Shown here piece by piece: positions 15,646 through 21,410 of a stretch of DNA of 64,000 bases; position 1 is the stretch's first letter, and each line of letters starts with the position of its first letter. The DNA is from an uncultured bacterium (GTDB lineage: Bacteria > Patescibacteriota > Minisyncoccia > UBA6257 > GWB1-50-10): positions 5,403 through 69,402 of the forward strand of contig CAIKKG010000027.1 in assembly GCA_903827975.1 (NCBI GenBank). The letters run 5' to 3'. The translations under genes were made by a program, and so were the position numbers. The notes beneath the pieces were generated by a model, which saw only the letters and a list, made by a program, of their open reading frames with translations, did no database searches and was not told the origin of the DNA.

Positions 15646-15812
15646 AAATCCCATAAATGGGGATTTCTTGGAGCGGGTAAGGGGAATCTCCTTCGCCTCT
15701 CAACTCGTCGTCACTCATCTCGGGCTAGGCACCGCCTCACTGTGTGCACTACTGAGTGCACACAGTTCCGGCGTCCGATTCCCCTAAGCAAAATCCCCAT
15801 AAATGGGGATTT
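15646..15812 (-). repeat. tRNA-Gly-associated 3' module, core family 2 (copy D)
   Basis: Reading 5' to 3' on the minus strand, downstream of the tRNA: terminator 15812-15790, inverted T-arm copy (plus 15774-15785, tccgattcccct), core 15773-15691, direct repeat 15690-15668 (gattccccttacccgctccaag) and a duplicated terminator 15667-15646. Confidence 0.6.
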
Positions 15813-15814
15813 CT

Positions 15815-15888
15815 TGGAGCGGGTAAGGGGAATCGGACCCCTGGCGCCAGTTTGGAAAACTGGGGTATTACCACTATACGATACCCGC
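15815..15888 (-). tRNA. tRNA-Gly(TCC) with encoded CCA. T-loop reads TCCGATT (C at position 55)
   Basis: Minus strand GCGGGTA-TC-GTAT-AGTGGTA-ATAC-C-CCAGT-TTTCCAA-ACTGG-CGCC-AGGGG-TCCGATT-CCCCT-TACCCGC-TCCA. U73 discriminator is typical of Gly. Confidence 0.6.
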
Positions 15889-16013
15889 GACTCCTTGTTT
15901 GACTAGAATAGGATACAAAATTATTCGAGAACCCGCAAGATGTATAAGGGCCTAAATAATTGAATTAGTTTTGTTTTTGACTTATGATGGGTTGAGACAA
16001 ATAAGGTAAATAT

Positions 16014-16622
16014 ATGTTAAATAACAAGCAAACAAAGATGGTTGCGGTTGGCAGTGTGCTTTTCCTTGTGTTGCTTTTTACATCTCTATACTTCATGCGT
16101 AGTGGCGGCGGATCGCCAGAAGCAAATCTTCCTCAGACATTTTTGCTTTCGAGAAAAACAGCAGCACTTATTAGTCAGAATATTGTAGACCTCACAAATA
16201 AAACAGGTGAGAAAATTTCTTCTGCAAATACAGCAGACTTAGCAGGTGATAGAGCTCGAGCAAGTTCGCTTATTTTAGAGGCTCAAAATACGAATGTTGA
16301 AGCAAGTCGCGCCGCATCTCAATTGGCGGGACAGTTGAAAGTTCTTACTGAGTCACTTGCAACAATGAGTTCAGTGAGCAGTCAGAGACTTGCGTATGAA
16401 GCAGTTGCAACGGAGTTGGCATTGGTTTCTGAGTTTGTTGTTTATACGCAAAACTTAAATGAATTTTTGGAGAAACTTCTAGTGTCTATGGAAACCGATA
16501 CAAAAGTAAGTAAAGCGGACATCGCATCGTCTCTCACGGCTACAAATAAAAGCGCGAGAAAAATAAATTCACTGAATGCTGAGTTTAGCGACAGGATGGC
16601 GAAGTTAGATAAATCGTTCTAA
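16014..16622 (+). CDS. membrane-anchored hypothetical protein
   Basis: N-terminal TM. Terminator at 16631-16652. Confidence 0.45.
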   Translation: MLNNKQTKMVAVGSVLFLVLLFTSLYFMRSGGGSPEANLPQTFLLSRKTAALISQNIVDLTNKTGEKISSANTADLAGDRARASSLILEAQNTNVEASRAASQLAGQLKVLTESLATMSSVSSQRLAYEAVATELALVSEFVVYTQNLNEFLEKLLVSMETDTKVSKADIASSLTATNKSARKINSLNAEFSDRMAKLDKSF

Positions 16623-16660
16623 ATATCAAAAAAGCCCTTTCGGGCTTTTTTGATACTGTG

Positions 16661-16732
16661 TCCCCTCGGAGGGAATCGAACCCCCATCAAGACCTTAGAA
16701 GAGTCCTGCTTTATCCATTAAGCTACGAGGGG
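16661..16732 (-). tRNA. tRNA-Arg(TCT)
   Basis: Minus strand CCCCTCG-TA-GCTT-AATGGATA-AAGC-A-GGACT-CTTCTAA-GGTCT-TGAT-GGGGG-TTCGATT-CCCTC-CGAGGGG-A. Confidence 0.6.
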
Positions 16733-16788
16733 TTAATGAACAAAATTGATTCTAAACGAAAAGTAATGTAATTTAAAGACCTGTGGTT

Positions 16789-16859
16789 CGGAGCGTAGTA
16801 TACCGGCAGTACACCTACCTTGGGCGTAGGCAGACCGGGTTCAATTCCCGGCGCTCCGA
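16789..16859 (+). tRNA. tRNA-Pro(TGG), C1:G72
   Basis: CGGAGCG...CCTAC-CTTGGGC-GTAGG...CCGGG-TTCAATT-CCCGG-CGCTCCG-A. Confidence 0.7.
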
Positions 16860-16900
16860 CTAACAAAAAAATAAGACCTAATTCGGGTCTTATTTTTTAT

Positions 16901-17067
16901 CCCGCGCTGGGAATTGAACGGGAAGGGGGTCGGGGAAACAGGAGTTTCCACGTGGCGGAAGTATTGAAACCGCTGGGTTTCAAAAATTTTGCGAATACAA
17001 AATTTGTTTACTTCCCGGCGCTCCGACTAACAAAAAAATAAGACCTAATTCGGGTCTTATTTTTTTA
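16901..17067 (+). repeat. tRNA-Pro-associated 3' module, core family 1 (copy A)
   Basis: Terminator 16871-16898. Inverted copy of the tRNA 3' part, cccgcgctgggaattgaac, at 16901-16919. Core at 16920-17010. 55-bp direct repeat of the tRNA 3' end plus terminator at 17011-17067. Confidence 0.6.
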
Positions 17068-17114
17068 TCCTCATTTGGATTTTGTTAACACCTCAATAAA
17101 AAAAACTCAACGTA

Positions 17115-19491: not shown

Positions 19492-19565
19492 ACATCCTCC
19501 TTTAGGATAAGAACTGCAAATAACCTAACATCCGTATTTGTATATAGCAAGTAAAATTAATTTAA

Positions 19566-19598
19566 ATAAAAACCCCGTCGATTGACGGGGATTTATAA
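19566..19598. terminator. terminator, near-identical repeat of the 19165-19196 hairpin
   Basis: aaataaaaaccccgtcgattgacggggattt. Confidence 0.55.
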
Positions 19599-19599
19599 T

Positions 19600-19911
19600 T
19601 TATAATACAGAACCTTCGACAAACGTGAGATATGGAAGAAGTCGTTTCACAACTTCCGTTTTCAAACAGTTTTCACAAATACCTCCATATGGAGGTTTGC
19701 TCTTGCCCTCGGTTGCTGATGCAACAAGCGGGTCCAACCATGGAGCCTCTGGGTGACCAGCTAAAAGTGAGCCGAACCAAACCTTGTAATTGCCGTGGCA
19801 TGGAAAATCTCCCTCACCGACATCTACACTTTGTTCTACTCGTGTTTGAATAATTGAGCTGTGAGAACAGACAACACACGAATACTTTCTCGTCTCTGTC
19901 ATTAAGGCCAT
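19600..19911 (-). CDS. small zinc-ribbon-like protein, paralog 2
   Basis: 103 aa. CVVC and GGICENC. Same architecture as the 19198-19491 gene. Confidence 0.5.
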   Translation of the reverse strand: MALMTETRKYSCVVCSHSSIIQTRVEQSVDVGEGDFPCHGNYKVWFGSLLAGHPEAPWLDPLVASATEGKSKPPYGGICENCLKTEVVKRLLPYLTFVEGSVL

Positions 19912-19986
19912 ACAACCTCCCTTTTAAATAAGAACTAAACAAAAAGTAGCAAATGATTAGTTTGAGCGCAAGGTATTTAGCTTAAT

Positions 19987-20655
19987 TTATGAAAAGTCCT
20001 TCGCATCAACCTCATCTTCTTCAAGAGCCTTCTCCGCCTCCTTCTCCTGGAAAGGAATATTTTTCCTCAATAATTTTTTGAAGAAGAATTCCATAGAAAA
20101 TAGAATTAGTATTACTATTAGAATTCCGTACTCGGCTTGTTTAACCATCCTTCCAGATTTTAGGAAATTAATTCCTGACATAAAGAAGTATGCAAAGCCG
20201 GTAACTGCCGTAAACCAAATTATTACGCCAGTCAGATATGAACGCATAAATACACTAAATTTAGTCTTTGACCATCCAGCGAGAAGAATAACAAAAATAT
20301 TTACACCGATAAGAAATTTCGCGCCAACTAATAATTTAGTGAGATTATTTTTTAAATAATAAAAGTATGATTGGAACCGCTTACTTGGCTTTAATCTATT
20401 TATATAAATCTTCCAGCCGAAGCGCGTATTACGCAACATTCTACCAATCAAGAAAATTGTTGTTTCTCCAGTAATAAGCGAGAGTGGTGCGAAAATAAGA
20501 AATTCAGACCAGGTTAATTTTCCACTTACAATAAGAAATACAGAGAGCATTATTGCAAGCTCGCCCTGTATTAGTATCGCAGCACCTATAATAAAATGAG
20601 TCCAGGATGGATACTGGACGATTAGCTGACCTACGGTATCTAGAAATTGACCCAT
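19987..20655 (-). CDS. DedA/VTT-like membrane protein
   Basis: Multi-TM, 222 aa, acidic C-terminus. Confidence 0.4.
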   Translation of the reverse strand: MGQFLDTVGQLIVQYPSWTHFIIGAAILIQGELAIMLSVFLIVSGKLTWSEFLIFAPLSLITGETTIFLIGRMLRNTRFGWKIYINRLKPSKRFQSYFYYLKNNLTKLLVGAKFLIGVNIFVILLAGWSKTKFSVFMRSYLTGVIIWFTAVTGFAYFFMSGINFLKSGRMVKQAEYGILIVILILFSMEFFFKKLLRKNIPFQEKEAEKALEEDEVDAKDFS

Positions 20656-20735
20656 GCCAAACTGTTATACTACAAGTATGGAACTTTTTCCAGTGTAAAA
20701 AAATAATTAGTCGAAAATAAACAAACTTTTATTCA

Positions 20736-21176
20736 ATGAAAATATTTGTAACAAGAGAGAGTGTGCGCACGAAAGCGGTAAGACCAAGCGGTCCAGGTGG
20801 ACACATGGCTGATAGAAGATCGATGAAGATACAGATGTGGGCGCTAGTAGAAAAACTTCCGCTTACGGAGGCGCATAAAAAAATGGTTAGGAAAAATCTC
20901 GCACATCGCATAAACAAGAAGGATGAGCTCGAGGTAATGTGTGAGGCTGAACGTTCTCAAGAAGAGAATCGTGATACGGCGTTGGAACTAATGAATACAT
21001 TAATTGCTGATGCAATCAAAGTTAAGAAGCCACGTATTCCAACCGAGCCCCCAAGAAATGTGAAGGATGAGGGTGTCCGCCAACGTGAACTTCGTTATAC
21101 AAAGAAAAAAGAGCGAAAAACTTCTAAAGCTGAGACGCGTCCAAACATGGGCAAGCTCAAAAATCTTGTAGGCTAA
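20736..21176 (+). CDS. ArfB/RF-1-domain (peptidyl-tRNA hydrolase-like) protein with GGH in place of GGQ
   Basis: RPSGPGGHMADRRS plus a basic C-terminal tail resembling ArfB (RSQ..NR..AL..L). Confidence 0.55.
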   Translation: MKIFVTRESVRTKAVRPSGPGGHMADRRSMKIQMWALVEKLPLTEAHKKMVRKNLAHRINKKDELEVMCEAERSQEENRDTALELMNTLIADAIKVKKPRIPTEPPRNVKDEGVRQRELRYTKKKERKTSKAETRPNMGKLKNLVG

Positions 21177-21223
21177 AGGGGTTGTAATATCATCCATATT
21201 TTCGTACTATATGGAGTGCGTAT

Positions 21224-21296
21224 GGTGCCTATGGTGTAAAGGTTAACACTGGAGTTTGTGGAACTCTCGATTCGGGTTCAATTCCCGATAGGCACC
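21224..21296 (+). tRNA. tRNA-His(GTG) with encoded G-1
   Basis: G(-1)-GTGCCTA-TG-GTGT-AAAGGTTA-ACAC-T-GGAGT-TTGTGGA-ACTCT-CGAT-TCGGG-TTCAATT-CCCGA-TAGGCAC-C. G-1:C73 is the hallmark of tRNA-His. Confidence 0.7.
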
Positions 21297-21335
21297 CAGA
21301 AAAAGAAAACCCCGAGTGGGGTTTTTCTTTTTATT

Positions 21336-21410
21336 TATCGGGAATTGAACTGGAAGGGGGTCGGGGAAACTTAAGTTTCCCCGTGGTGGAAGCATTGAAC
21401 CGCCGGCAAA
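21336..21410 (+). repeat. tRNA-His-associated 3' module, core family 1 (copy B, no distal direct repeat)
   Basis: Terminator 21305-21330. Inverted copy tatcgggaattgaac, a 15-nt exact reverse complement of the tRNA-His T-arm. Core shares GGAAGGGGGTCGGGGAAAC...GTTTCC.CGTGG.GGAAG.ATTGAA with 16920-16975. Confidence 0.55.

Follow-up and report, generated by a model that had tools for sequence, protein, structure and literature searches.

Integration at tRNA genes usually leaves direct repeats of the tRNA 3′ end as its footprint. Integron attC sites and the folded attP site of CTX phage are imperfect hairpins of 60-150 nt, in which the two arms together restore a recombination site in duplex form. 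Quasipalindrome template switching and small inverted triplications are described, in the outlines given by two published accounts, as yielding a forward-inverted-forward order that pivots on a hairpin (PMC7202029, PMC13334657). RNA-guided proteins with Tas/Nop domains and arrays of stem-loop guides occur in CPR bacteria (PMC12045711). The modules described here recall parts of each of these systems.

Four tRNA genes, for glycine, proline, phenylalanine and histidine, carry a module 3′ of the gene in a stretch of 64,000 nt from an uncultured bacterium (the window). An earlier note on this DNA had described these modules; the observation is confirmed as genuine, and its reach is wider than that note could tell. 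On the best reading, the modules are a family of small, non-coding, non-autonomous units at tRNA 3′ flanks in one clade of Paceibacterota (Patescibacteria/CPR). The hosts are groundwater bacteria with tiny genomes. The tRNA positions were taken from ARAGORN and Rfam, with tRNA-Phe found when introns were allowed. The parts of the window are as follows.

6013-6097, minus strand: tRNA-Leu
15646-15688, minus strand: Gly direct-repeat copy 2 (tRNA-Gly positions 57-76 and a second terminator copy)
15689-15772, minus strand: Gly type B core, helices P1-P4 (covariance-model match 15680-15785, 111 bits)
15773-15785, minus strand: Gly inverted arm AGGGGAATCGGAC, reverse complement of tRNA positions 53-65
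15791-15812, minus strand: tRNA-Gly terminator hairpin, the palindrome centre
15791-15834, minus strand: Gly direct-repeat copy 1
15815-15888, minus strand: tRNA-Gly(tcc), host of module 1; its 3′ 20 nt (15815-15834) lie within direct-repeat copy 1
16660-16732, minus strand: tRNA-Arg
16789-16860, plus strand: tRNA-Pro(tgg), host of module 2
16839-16902, plus strand: Pro direct-repeat copy 1
16865-16898, plus strand: tRNA-Pro terminator, the palindrome centre
16901-16919, plus strand: Pro inverted arm CCCGCGCTGGGAATTGAAC, complement of positions 53 to about 70
16920-17005, plus strand: Pro type A core and AT-rich linker (G-rich leader, hairpins P1 and P2 to about 16973)
17006-17070, plus strand: Pro direct-repeat copy 2 (tRNA-Pro 3′ end and a second terminator copy)
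18687-18982, plus strand: tRNA-Phe(gaa), host of module 3, with a group I intron at about 18709-18951
18964-18996, plus strand: Phe direct-repeat copy 1
18964-19021, plus strand: Phe palindrome TCCCGCGGCACAATAAAAACCCC / GTAA / GGGGTTTTTTATTTGCCACGGGA (tRNA-Phe 3′ end, terminator, acceptor-complement arm at 19012-19021)
19022-19047, plus strand: Phe hairpin H1, which interrupts the inverted arm; loop CAATTTATTG kept in related loci L010, L020 and L022
19048-19059, plus strand: Phe inverted T-arm CGGGAGTTGAAC, complement of positions 53-63
19060-19142, plus strand: Phe type B core
19143-19191, plus strand: Phe direct-repeat copy 2 and second terminator (19143-19175, positions 56-73 and trailer; terminator 19166-19191)
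21225-21297, plus strand: tRNA-His(gtg), host of module 4
21271-21355, plus strand: His palindrome with in-register 34-nt arms around the terminator at 21305-21326
21336-21350, plus strand: His inverted arm TATCGGGAATTGAAC, at the right end of the His palindrome
21351-21405, plus strand: His type A core, intact through P2, with no direct repeat after it

Each module begins with an inverted duplication of tRNA positions 53-73 around the tRNA's own terminator, which produces one long palindrome. Its centre is the terminator loop, and it extends from G53 of the tRNA to the complement of G53 in Gly, Pro, Phe and His. The earlier layout of a terminator followed by an inverted segment was correct as to the parts but not as to their separateness, since both belong to this palindrome; in all modules examined, the segment from tRNA 3′ end to terminator aligns palindromically with that from terminator to inverted arm. 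The second part is a GC-rich structured core from one of at least five families. Its junction with the inverted arm is exact and directly follows ...GAA|C or ...GAA|G, which is complementary to positions 54/53. Usually there is a third part, in which the tRNA sequence from about position 57 to the end of the terminator is repeated, displaced, in direct orientation. By pairing with the inverted arm, this repeat closes a hairpin around the core, a stem that had been proposed from the sequence and was borne out by folding.

At all four tRNAs, the inverted segments were found to be exact reverse complements of the tRNA's own T-loop and T-stem 3′ strand, as first described. They measure 13 nt in Gly and 15 nt in His, whereas the Pro segment is 11 nt when exact and 19-20 nt when mismatches are allowed. 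The Phe segment is in two pieces, one of 11-12 nt and one, complementary to the acceptor, of 10 nt, the arm being interrupted by a 26-nt hairpin and extending to the discriminator base. When each 150-nt downstream flank was shuffled 500 times, the observed inverted length was never attained, and upstream control flanks gave inverted matches of at most 7 nt. The same limit of 7 nt applies to tRNA-Leu and tRNA-Arg, rightly reported to lack the module. The inverted arm is a true complement copy: U64, which faces G50 in the stem of the tRNA itself, is faced by A in the arm.

Among the direct repeats, the 44 nt reported for Gly (15646-15688 versus 15791-15834) holds with one indel, the exact match being 39 nt. 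The Pro repeat (16839-16902 versus 17006-17070) is present, but spans about 64 nt at about 95% identity rather than 55 nt, and the 33-nt Phe repeat (18964-18996 versus 19143-19175) is exact. His was said to lack a direct repeat, and none occurs anywhere in the window. The left junction, GAA|C or GAA|G, is constant for cores A, B, B′, C, D and E and for gene-bearing inserts. The right junction lies mostly at position 57 (range 56-60), and the terminator marks the end of the direct repeat; the GTT expected ahead of the direct arm is usually missing.

The cores of the window form two homologous pairs, type B (Gly and Phe) and type A (Pro and His; 88% over 60 nt), and are GC-rich as previously noted, at 48-59% G+C versus 40% in the window. 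The core B fold contains 27 pairs, 22 of which show compensatory changes; in the alignment, 90.7% of cells are paired versus 30-44% with the partners slid, and none of 500 shuffles scored as high as observed. Independent folding of 10 modules yielded a common shape. In 14 of 15 modules, the tRNA-sense strand folds better than the opposite strand, by 4-15 kcal/mol. In L010 module 1, the arms have become different from the tRNA, yet they still form 16 Watson-Crick and 3 G·U pairs with no A·C; here the inverted arm shares its inheritance with the downstream direct arm and not with the copy attached to the tRNA. A 7-bp acceptor stem with the right discriminator base is restored in type B modules at tRNA-Phe, Leu, Gln and His. 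A search of about 180-300 kb with a B covariance model and an A profile detected copies only 3′ of tRNAs.

The sampled sequence amounts to about 300 kb from one clade, as loci rather than whole genomes, and the related loci are module-bearing stretches of 20 kb. The architecture is present in at least eight further Paceibacterota (CPR) genomes, with arms that always match the local tRNA. It recurs, as a mobile-element interpretation had called for, at independent tRNAs (Gln, Leu, Gly, Phe, Pro and His), and homologous, covarying cores were found at six tRNA species in at least nine genomes. When a tRNA is counted as occupied if 10 nt or more of its own T-arm recur exactly in inverted form within 150 nt, a level reached by at most 0.6% of shuffles, 18 of 42 tRNAs on 11 non-redundant contigs are occupied; the remaining tRNAs show at most 7 nt. 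Occupied and unoccupied orthologous tRNAs, the polymorphism that had been looked for, both exist among relatives: the tRNA-Pro module occurs in the window and L019 and is absent from L015, L021 and L022, and the tRNA-Gly module occurs in the window and L021 and is absent from L022 and L023.

The tRNA-Phe flank has three alleles inside one species. Different cores also occupy the same tRNA, with B′ in L020 versus E in L023 at tRNA-Phe, and tRNA-Gly carries an E core in L020 and no module in L023. The His and Phe cores of L020 are 78% identical, compared with only 47-58% against Phe cores elsewhere, and have a derived GAAG junction in common. Tandem modules were observed in L010 (three), L008 (two) and L022 (two), and truncated copies in the window (His), L010 (module 3) and L002. 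In strain L002, the equivalent of 19103-19156 is replaced by 1.3 kb with two bPH_2 genes, and in L001 a 5.7-kb gene-bearing insert begins at the GAAC junction; gene cargo at the tRNA-Phe and tRNA-His flanks is strain-variable. Modules appear to be gained, lost and swapped among tRNA genes.

How might such modules arise? We tentatively favor non-autonomous duplicative modules for which each tRNA serves anew as template, through recombination or template switching at the conserved T-loop and the terminator palindrome, with selection on a single-stranded, probably RNA, fold. The anatomy suggests that new copies would arise duplicatively, without an element-encoded enzyme. A nascent DNA strand or recombination intermediate would reverse at the terminator palindrome, copy the tRNA 3′ end backwards up to the T-loop, switch into a core at another tRNA locus via short T-loop homology (GGGAATYGAA on the left, GATTCC on the right), and switch back, copying being resumed at position 57. 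Such a series would yield always-local arms, a constant left junction and a direct repeat ending at the terminator. Cores may spread and homogenize among loci via the same short homologies, and whole modules may pass from strain to strain when their flanks undergo ordinary homologous recombination. Selection on the module fold is partly shown, with conservation of the tRNA-sense strand fold. The simplest reason for the latter would be read-through transcription from the tRNA promoter and selection of an RNA hairpin, perhaps sometimes with a tRNA-like acceptor end.

Some observations fit this template-switching reading less well. A three-step switch should be rare, but as many as 4 of the 5 or 6 tRNAs sampled in a genome are occupied, which speaks for selection or for an enzyme devoted to the task. 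The gene-bearing inserts, of 5.7 kb in L001, begin at the same GAAC, for which site-specific integration is more natural. In L010, a module with older-looking arms lies nearer to the tRNA than the one whose arms match the present tRNA best, an order that is awkward for creation solely beside the tRNA. No template-switch intermediate, very young copy, or precise empty/filled pair in near-identical strains was found in the sampled loci.

No recombinase, reverse transcriptase or transposase gene was found in positions 1-34 kb of the window or in the Pfam lists of the 20-kb module-bearing loci; the tyrosine or serine recombinase that the earlier note had suggested looking for was thus not found there, though an enzyme acting in trans may be encoded elsewhere in these genomes. 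A simple attL/attR reading does not fit, given this negative result and arms re-templated at every tRNA, which are unlike those of a mobile element with fixed ends. What survives of the mobile-element interpretation is recurrence, occupied and unoccupied sites, and arm pairing, but not the simple attL/attR form; in L010 module 1, the inverted arm is inherited with the downstream arm.

A rather doubtful alternative is site-specific integration in which the attachment site is a folded single strand, like integron attC or the attP hairpin of CTX phage. A small circle of tRNA 3′ end, terminator, inverted arm and core or cargo would fold so that its arms rebuild the T-arm duplex, and the host would supply, from another locus, a tyrosine recombinase (Xer- or IntI-like) that exchanges strands at the T-loop G|TT, with cassettes stacking 3′ of the tRNA. 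The exact left boundary in every core type and in gene-bearing inserts argues for this, L001 and L019 having terminator and inverted arm in common and diverging right after GAAC. Tandem arrays, the strand-asymmetric fold, genome-specific core variants reminiscent of species-specific attC families, variable-gene hot spots at the tRNA-Phe and tRNA-His flanks, and the tRNA direct repeats themselves point the same way. However, the direct arm starts at 56-60 and not 54, mostly without GTT, the stretches searched yielded no recombinase of the tyrosine or serine type, and the arms do not match the attC R/L-box consensus. Moreover, the inverted arm of L010 module 1 matches the wrong partner for such integration, the downstream direct arm, and arms fitted to many tRNAs would need one element lineage each, whereas cores are common to tRNAs within a genome.

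It is unlikely that the modules are immobile functional non-coding RNA genes, that is, tRNA-linked small RNAs from the tRNA transcription unit. Their closing stem would mimic the acceptor/T-arm helix for maturation or stabilization by RNase P, 3′ trimming and CCA addition, with gene conversion keeping the arms matched to the tRNA. This is consistent with the strong covariation of core B and the conservation of its sequence among genomes with ZnuC proteins just 65-70% identical, the better-folding sense strand, arm pairing kept by G·U pairs, the restored acceptor stem and discriminator base of type B, and the terminator that ends most modules. Orthologous retention is also seen, of B at tRNA-Gly (window and L021) and at tRNA-Phe (window and L022, variant B′ in L020), and of the same H1 hairpin at tRNA-His (L020 and L023). 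Nevertheless, the distribution is patchy, core type is swapped at one tRNA between related genomes, truncated and interrupted copies are tolerated, and the Gly, Pro and His modules have no acceptor stem. Each module is preceded by a terminator, with no promoter-like site found upstream. At least five unrelated cores in one architecture indicate that the architecture is a property of the site or process, not of one RNA, and the inverted arm would still require a templated DNA event.

Guide or template RNAs of an RNA-guided system acting on the cognate tRNA or its gene, likened to pegRNAs, trans-splicing ribozymes with a replacement 3′ exon, IS110 bridge RNAs or TIGR tigRNAs, are very unlikely. 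The parts are ordered as an antisense segment (73 to 53), a conserved scaffold and a sense segment (57 to 73), which would suit an antisense guide at the 5′ end, a scaffold that is catalytic or binds protein, and a sense copy at the 3′ end; like an internal guide sequence, the antisense arm extends across the 56/57 junction, and the CPR Tas/Nop proteins provide a precedent. Against this, Tas, IS110, TnpB, IscB, Cas and reverse-transcriptase genes were not found near any module, Rfam ribozyme and guide-RNA families gave no match even at E≤10, and five unrelated scaffolds imply five partners. TIGR and bridge-RNA guides target adjacent non-overlapping segments, without covariation, whereas the module arms overlap and pair mutually. 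Finally, att-site scars of since-deleted integrase-driven islands, or chance local duplications, are highly improbable despite strain-variable cargo at the tRNA-Phe and tRNA-His flanks and tRNA 3′ direct repeats, being largely refuted by core B covariation, tRNA-only copies and the shuffle controls that exclude chance, together with homologous cores at six tRNA species in at least nine genomes, co-evolving arms and the absence of detected integrase remnants.

What distinguishes these modules from known systems? The earlier note knew of no described element with this exact architecture, and nothing matching was found in Rfam families, phages, viral contigs or the literature, or as a nearby recombinase. 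Like MITEs, REP-BIME, Correia-type repeats and yeast mitochondrial GC clusters, the modules are short GC-rich non-coding hairpins, intergenic in an AT-rich genome, with several families per genome and patchy spread. However, the terminal repeats of those elements are constant and their target duplications short and fixed, whereas module terminal repeats are re-templated per target, the duplication is 33-64 nt, up to the terminator, and modules are restricted to tRNA 3′ flanks. The forward-inverted-forward order pivoting on a hairpin is that of quasipalindrome template switching and inverted triplications as outlined above, but those errors are sporadic and lack a conserved inserted core, whereas modules recur at many tRNAs, always with a structured-family core. 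As in bridge RNAs, tigRNAs, engineered pegRNAs and trans-splicing ribozymes, target-antisense and target-sense segments flank a structured scaffold, though here no partner protein was found nearby and the arms overlap and pair together. With tRNA-targeting integrative elements (attL/attR), the modules share an insert bracketed by tRNA 3′ repeats, an intact tRNA, tandem stacking and variable genes in the same flanks of other strains; unlike them, the inserts are just 100-180 bp without integrase, and an inverted att-region copy is added and co-inherited with the downstream repeat. Compared with attC and attP, the module arms copy the local tRNA instead of a constant R/L box, the direct arm does not start at GTT, no IntI or other recombinase lies near the modules, and their "cassettes" carry no gene. 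Nevertheless, the modules resemble these folded sites in their paired hairpin arms, in strand specificity, known here from fold asymmetry, and, as regards attC, in tandem arrays 3′ of a fixed site, loop sequences in genome-specific families and a boundary at an AAC/GTT triplet.

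The six tRNA genes reported for this stretch are all real. They lie in a window of 40% G+C, with znuC, a sigma factor, an RF-1-domain protein and hypotheticals as neighbors, and tRNA-Phe contains a group I intron in its anticodon loop (RF00028, 70 bits, Rfam). The module behind tRNA-Gly, tRNA-Pro, tRNA-Phe and tRNA-His consists of a terminator palindrome with an inverted arm, a GC-rich core and usually a direct arm, the second copy of the tRNA 3' end, with inserts of 100–180 bp. Each inverted segment was confirmed to be the exact reverse complement of the T-loop and T-stem 3' strand of its own tRNA, and the observed arm length was reached by none of 500 shuffles for each of the four downstream flanks. 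tRNA-Leu and tRNA-Arg, described as lacking the module, show only 0–7 nt of complement, as do upstream control flanks. The direct repeat of tRNA-Phe is 33 nt exact, as claimed, and that of tRNA-Gly, given as 44 bp, is 39 nt exact or 44 nt with one indel. The 55 bp claimed for tRNA-Pro was an underestimate, the repeat being ~64 nt at ~95%, and tRNA-His indeed has none. Core homology groups Gly with Phe (type B) and Pro with His (type A, 88% over 60 nt).

Terminator and inverted arm make up a single long palindrome rather than two parts. Alignment of the sequence from G53 to the terminator centre with the reverse complement of that from the centre to the inverted-arm end, in 17 modules, revealed a palindrome unbroken from the tRNA 3' end through the terminator to the inverted arm in all 17. 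Its right arm departs from the left in three ways: 1) a 3–10-nt deletion opposite the last acceptor nucleotides (Gly, Pro, and Phe of the related contigs L019 and L001), 2) replacement of the acceptor part, in register, by AT-rich sequence (His in the window, Phe in L023), and 3) insertion of H1, a hairpin of ~26 nt (type B modules at Phe, Leu, Gln and His). The left junction is fixed: the last nucleotide of the inverted arm is invariably the complement of position 54 or 53, so the core starts after GAA|C or GAA|G. The direct arm begins mostly at purine 57, and in young copies the direct repeat extends to the terminator end. In the Phe arm an A stands opposite U64, which the own tRNA stem pairs with G50, indicating that the arm is a true complement copy and not the tRNA's own 5' strand. 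Two candidates were rejected: a degenerate duplicated tRNA, whose 5' half would form the inverted arm, because the arm complements the T-loop and has A rather than G opposite U64; and a tRNA-like gene on the opposite strand, where no T-arm is possible, none was detected by ARAGORN or Rfam, and the fold is weaker. A search for a distant attR copy of the 3' end of tRNA-His or of tRNA-Phe (L001) found none.

The modules recur at independent copies, as the earlier note had proposed to check. An exact 24-base pattern for core B gave two matches in a genome scan and two in a metagenome scan, placing this core in four further contigs. Further module copies were reached via homologs of the ZnuC-like ABC ATPase (17893–18633, minus strand), which is identically encoded on contigs of GCA_037131435.1, GCA_026396755.1 and several groundwater assemblies. 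The related loci are labeled Candidatus Paceibacterota, Parcubacteria or Patescibacteria, which identifies the organism of the window as a CPR bacterium. L009, L011, L015 and L024 come from the Hainich H41-H52 wells. Several core families were found:

Modules in related contigs
L008: two modules behind tRNA-Gln, with a B core, then a type C core
L010: tRNA-Leu(gag) followed by three modules, of types A, B and A, the last truncated
L009 and L011: one B module, no recognisable upstream tRNA
L019: inverted arm at tRNA-Phe; type A module at tRNA-Pro
L020: B' (a variant of B) at tRNA-His and tRNA-Phe; D at tRNA-Pro; E at tRNA-Gly
L021: B at tRNA-Gly
L022: B, then an A-like module, at tRNA-Phe; inverted arm, then genes, at tRNA-His
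L023: B' at tRNA-His; E at tRNA-Phe
L015, L024 and L025: no modules

The signature is present in 18 of 42 tRNAs (11 non-redundant contigs) and in none of eight tRNA-Arg(tct), and the arms are copies of the local tRNA in every case. Ahead of the L009/L011 B module, a hairpin resembling a T-arm was observed at 1840–1960 (minus strand) of L011, together with a repeated trailer (..CCGTAACGACC.GCAAGGAG), and no tRNA or other Rfam family was detected there; a decayed tRNA is one candidate for this sequence, an older module another.

The core of type B has a covarying fold. When folded singly, all 10 type B modules adopted one common shape: a closing stem, H1 where present, and a junction with helices P1-P2 and P3-P4. 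The pairing of the inverted arm with the repeated 3' end around the core, suggested in the earlier note, is the closing stem of these 10 folds; at Phe, Leu, Gln and His it is longer, forming an acceptor-like stem of 7 bp that has the correct discriminator base. In an alignment of 10 sequences with 27 core pairs, compensatory changes were found in 22 pairs, and 90.7% of cells were paired, versus 30–44% with the partners slid by 1–3 columns; none of 500 shuffles matched the core in any of five measures. Examples are a U:A to C:G covariation in the mini-hairpin GAG-YGA-N-GRCGA and a flip of P1 from G-C to C-G between B and B'. Across all types, folding favors the tRNA-sense strand over its complement by 4–15 kcal/mol in 14 of 15 modules, since G.U pairs turn into A.C mismatches on that complement. 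In the first module of L010 the arms have diverged from the present tRNA-Leu and are still mutually paired, with 16 Watson-Crick, three G.U and no A.C pairs (counts from this module only, verified by eye), indicating that inverted arm, core and direct arm form a hairpin that co-evolves as one coherent unit. In type A, a G-rich leader is followed by two hairpins; the four full copies of this type are too few for a covariation test. The modules are confined to tRNA flanks: a B covariance model and an A profile, run over 180–300 kb of sequence, found no copies except behind tRNAs.

Modules are gained, lost, swapped and stacked at these flanks. Occupied and empty sites, a check proposed in the earlier note, were observed as other cores or none at the same tRNA between related genomes. 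Within the species of the window, three alleles of the tRNA-Phe flank were found:

Alleles of the tRNA-Phe flank, with the spans compared
Window, 18991–19157: intact B module
L002 (8210–9531) and L004: B module in which 19103–19156 is replaced by 1.3 kb with two bPH_2 genes, with a GTGATGCGA microhomology joint
L001 (3984–9643), L003 and L005: another terminator, then a 17-nt inverted arm with an insert of three genes (5.7 kb) directly after it

The terminator and inverted arm of L001 also occur in the more distant L019, and the two contigs diverge right after GAAC. The cores of tRNA-His and tRNA-Phe in L020 are 78% identical, versus 47–58% to Phe cores elsewhere, and both have the derived GAAG junction; the Gly cores of the window and L021 share 81% identity and look orthologous. 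Cores therefore show both persistence at a tRNA and spread to other tRNAs of the same genome; the arms stay local. The region compared between the window and L001 is a recombination mosaic, making their divergence comparison uninformative. In L006 and L007, the contig ends, or the allele changes, at the tRNA-Phe module.

Other features were observed at and around these loci. The bPH_2 genes encode membrane proteins. The products of the 5.7-kb insert of L001 are an AAA_23/SMC-like ATPase, a DUF3160 protein and a PGA_cap protein, and this insert is possibly a defense or envelope cassette. The tRNA-proximal Phe terminator of the window (18985–19008) reads CCCC-GTAA-GGGG and the terminator at the right end of the L001 insert (L001 3955–3980) reads CCCC-TTAC-GGGG, the inverted loop being the sole difference; such an inversion is what copying of the hairpin from the opposite strand would produce. 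The gene content of the interval from tRNA-His to Cob_adeno_trans varies between genomes. Immediately downstream of the tRNA-Phe module of the window are two paralogous ORFs of ~100 aa with CxxC...CxxC motifs (19198–19491 and 19600–19911, both minus strand), which have no Pfam match and are each followed by a near-identical terminator, AATAAAAACCCCGTCGATTGACGGGG. At 29185–29525 of the window, ~340 nt of intergenic sequence have ~65% G+C in a genome of 40%, with terminator-like hairpins on both sides and a shorter GC-rich hairpin just upstream (29040–29100). No match was found there by Rfam at E<=1, nor a tmRNA by ARAGORN; the stretch may encode a large non-coding RNA not yet recognised as such (an RNase P RNA of CPR type, a tmRNA or another). 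In L015, the position of the window tRNA-Phe is occupied by a transposon-like unit (1–960), a 134-aa ORF (308–712) between ~110-bp inverted repeats (attagtccgaacgcatttcgtcccgaccgttgtcgcgg...). Downstream of the orthologous tRNA-Pro of this contig (2628–2699, minus strand), a different GC-rich hairpin element (2500–2600) has terminal inverted repeats of 16 bp, ATACCAGGAAACCCCG...CGGGGTTTCCTGGTAT, which do not derive from the tRNA. In L021, a faint LAGLIDADG_3 ORF (147–877) abuts, with a 10-nt overlap, the tRNA-Phe call (803–877), which is intron-free and lacks a module.

How did these modules originate? Duplicative copy-choice is favored here, albeit tentatively. A strand would turn back at the terminator palindrome, copying the tRNA 3' end in reverse to the T-loop, would switch into a core at another locus via the T-loop homology common to tRNA genes, and would come back at position 57, with no need for an element-encoded enzyme. 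These steps would yield the local arms, the GAA|N junction, the position-57 start and the repeat end at the terminator. Errors of this form, fold-back and inverted-triplication, are on record as sporadic mutations (PMC7202029, PMC13334657). Copy-choice is weakened by the high occupancy, by inserts with genes that start at the same junction and by the order of the modules in L010. A folded single-strand attachment site served by a recombinase encoded elsewhere, integron- or CTX-like, is rather unlikely; the modules do fold, and, consistent with the earlier statement that the inserts encode no recombinase, no tyrosine or serine recombinase Pfam domain was found in window 1–34 kb, L001–L005 or L020–L023, nor any integrase, transposase or reverse transcriptase in the ORFs of window 1–34 kb or the gene tables of related module-bearing 20-kb loci. 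That the modules are plain functional tRNA-linked RNA genes is unlikely as well: beside their conserved sense-strand structure stands a promoter scan upstream of the modules, in which nothing exceeded shuffle expectation. These readings are not mutually exclusive, as a mobile module can be RNA-selected too. It is quite improbable that the modules are natural two-armed RNAs acting on the cognate tRNA or its gene, in which an antisense 53–73 guide would dock across 56/57, the conserved core (protein-bound or catalytic) would cleave and ligate or prime copying, and the 3' sense copy (57–73 plus trailer) would serve as replacement 3' end or homing template. If true, this would be a system of RNA-templated tRNA 3'-end repair or self-propagation, retargeting itself automatically, with each new target serving as the template from which the two arms are made afresh. 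For a guide or template RNA directed at the tRNA or its gene (compare PMC12045711), the likelihood is very small and much lower than for the two main rivals of copy-choice, the folded attachment site and the tRNA-linked RNA gene.

If the finding holds, CPR bacteria possess a repeat class without fixed ends, each target tRNA gene dictating them anew; among mobile-element and RNA families, none with target-rewritten ends was found. Cores A and B would then be at least two well-supported new structured nucleic-acid motifs, with several further candidates, occurring in organisms with very small genomes, and the tRNA 3' flanks of Paceibacterota would be organised hot spots of genome change. It would also pose a testable question: are a conserved hairpin and the universal T-loop enough for duplicative spread without a dedicated enzyme, or is an unrecognised recombinase or RNA-guided activity at work? 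In practice, the modules will mislead tRNA, terminator and island annotation in metagenome-assembled CPR genomes, and they break assemblies, as in L006 and L007.

What distinguishes the modules from known systems? The earlier note knew of no described element with this architecture, and a literature search likewise found no description. No core matched Rfam 15 (tRNA-like RNAs, ribozymes, guide RNAs) at gathering score or E<=10; the window was searched at gathering score and the region at E<=10, together with three related loci, yielding tRNAs and the group I intron only. Against 50,697 phage records (BLAST), core B had no match, and the sole match of core A, a weak one of 26 nt in two Streptococcus phages, is put down to chance; pattern scans of viral contigs gave no genuine match, the loose pattern hitting by chance three times inside CDS (P-E-L/V-S-D-D-E). 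The study of tRNA introns in Patescibacteria (PMC13011429) deals solely with group I introns of the anticodon loop, and the RF00028 fold in the anticodon loop belongs to the tRNA-Phe intron alone, not to the modules. For TIGR tigRNA or IS110 bridge RNA, no partner protein lies nearby in the searched loci, and the module arms overlap and are mutually complementary, unlike TIGR spacers (PMC12045711). Integrase-driven tRNA-targeting elements encode a tyrosine or serine recombinase, which the modules lack in the searched loci; the tRNA 3'-end direct repeats that such elements have at both insert ends are present for Gly, Pro and Phe, not His. Integron attC sites have location-independent R''/R' (RYYYAAC / GTTRRRY) and L boxes, whereas module arms differ for each tRNA and equal the local T-arm; ATTGAAC and ATCGAAC are one position off the attC consensus, the module 3' arm usually lacks GTT, and no intI gene or attI site adjoins the module tRNAs. 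IS200/IS605-derived or REP/RAYT elements insert 3' of a fixed tetra- or pentanucleotide, which a module junction after T(T/C)GAA would fit; among the loci sampled, which are not whole genomes, the only Y1_Tnp gene seen is in L025, from a genome without modules. At 3115–3789 and 9560–9726, L025 has this Y1 (IS200/RAYT-type) transposase gene and, downstream of its tRNA-Phe, no fewer than six short REP-like palindromes in succession, with core ACGCTAAGCGT. MITE/REP families have constant terminal inverted repeats, a fixed short target duplication and copies dispersed in intergenic DNA, whereas B cores at Gly, Phe, Gln, Leu and His each have arms of their own tRNA, the module duplications are 33–64 nt and end at the terminator, and modules occur only behind tRNAs (covariance model, profile). 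The modules fail the defining tests of every known family that could be tested; the finding itself is real, general within this CPR clade, statistically secure and structurally supported.
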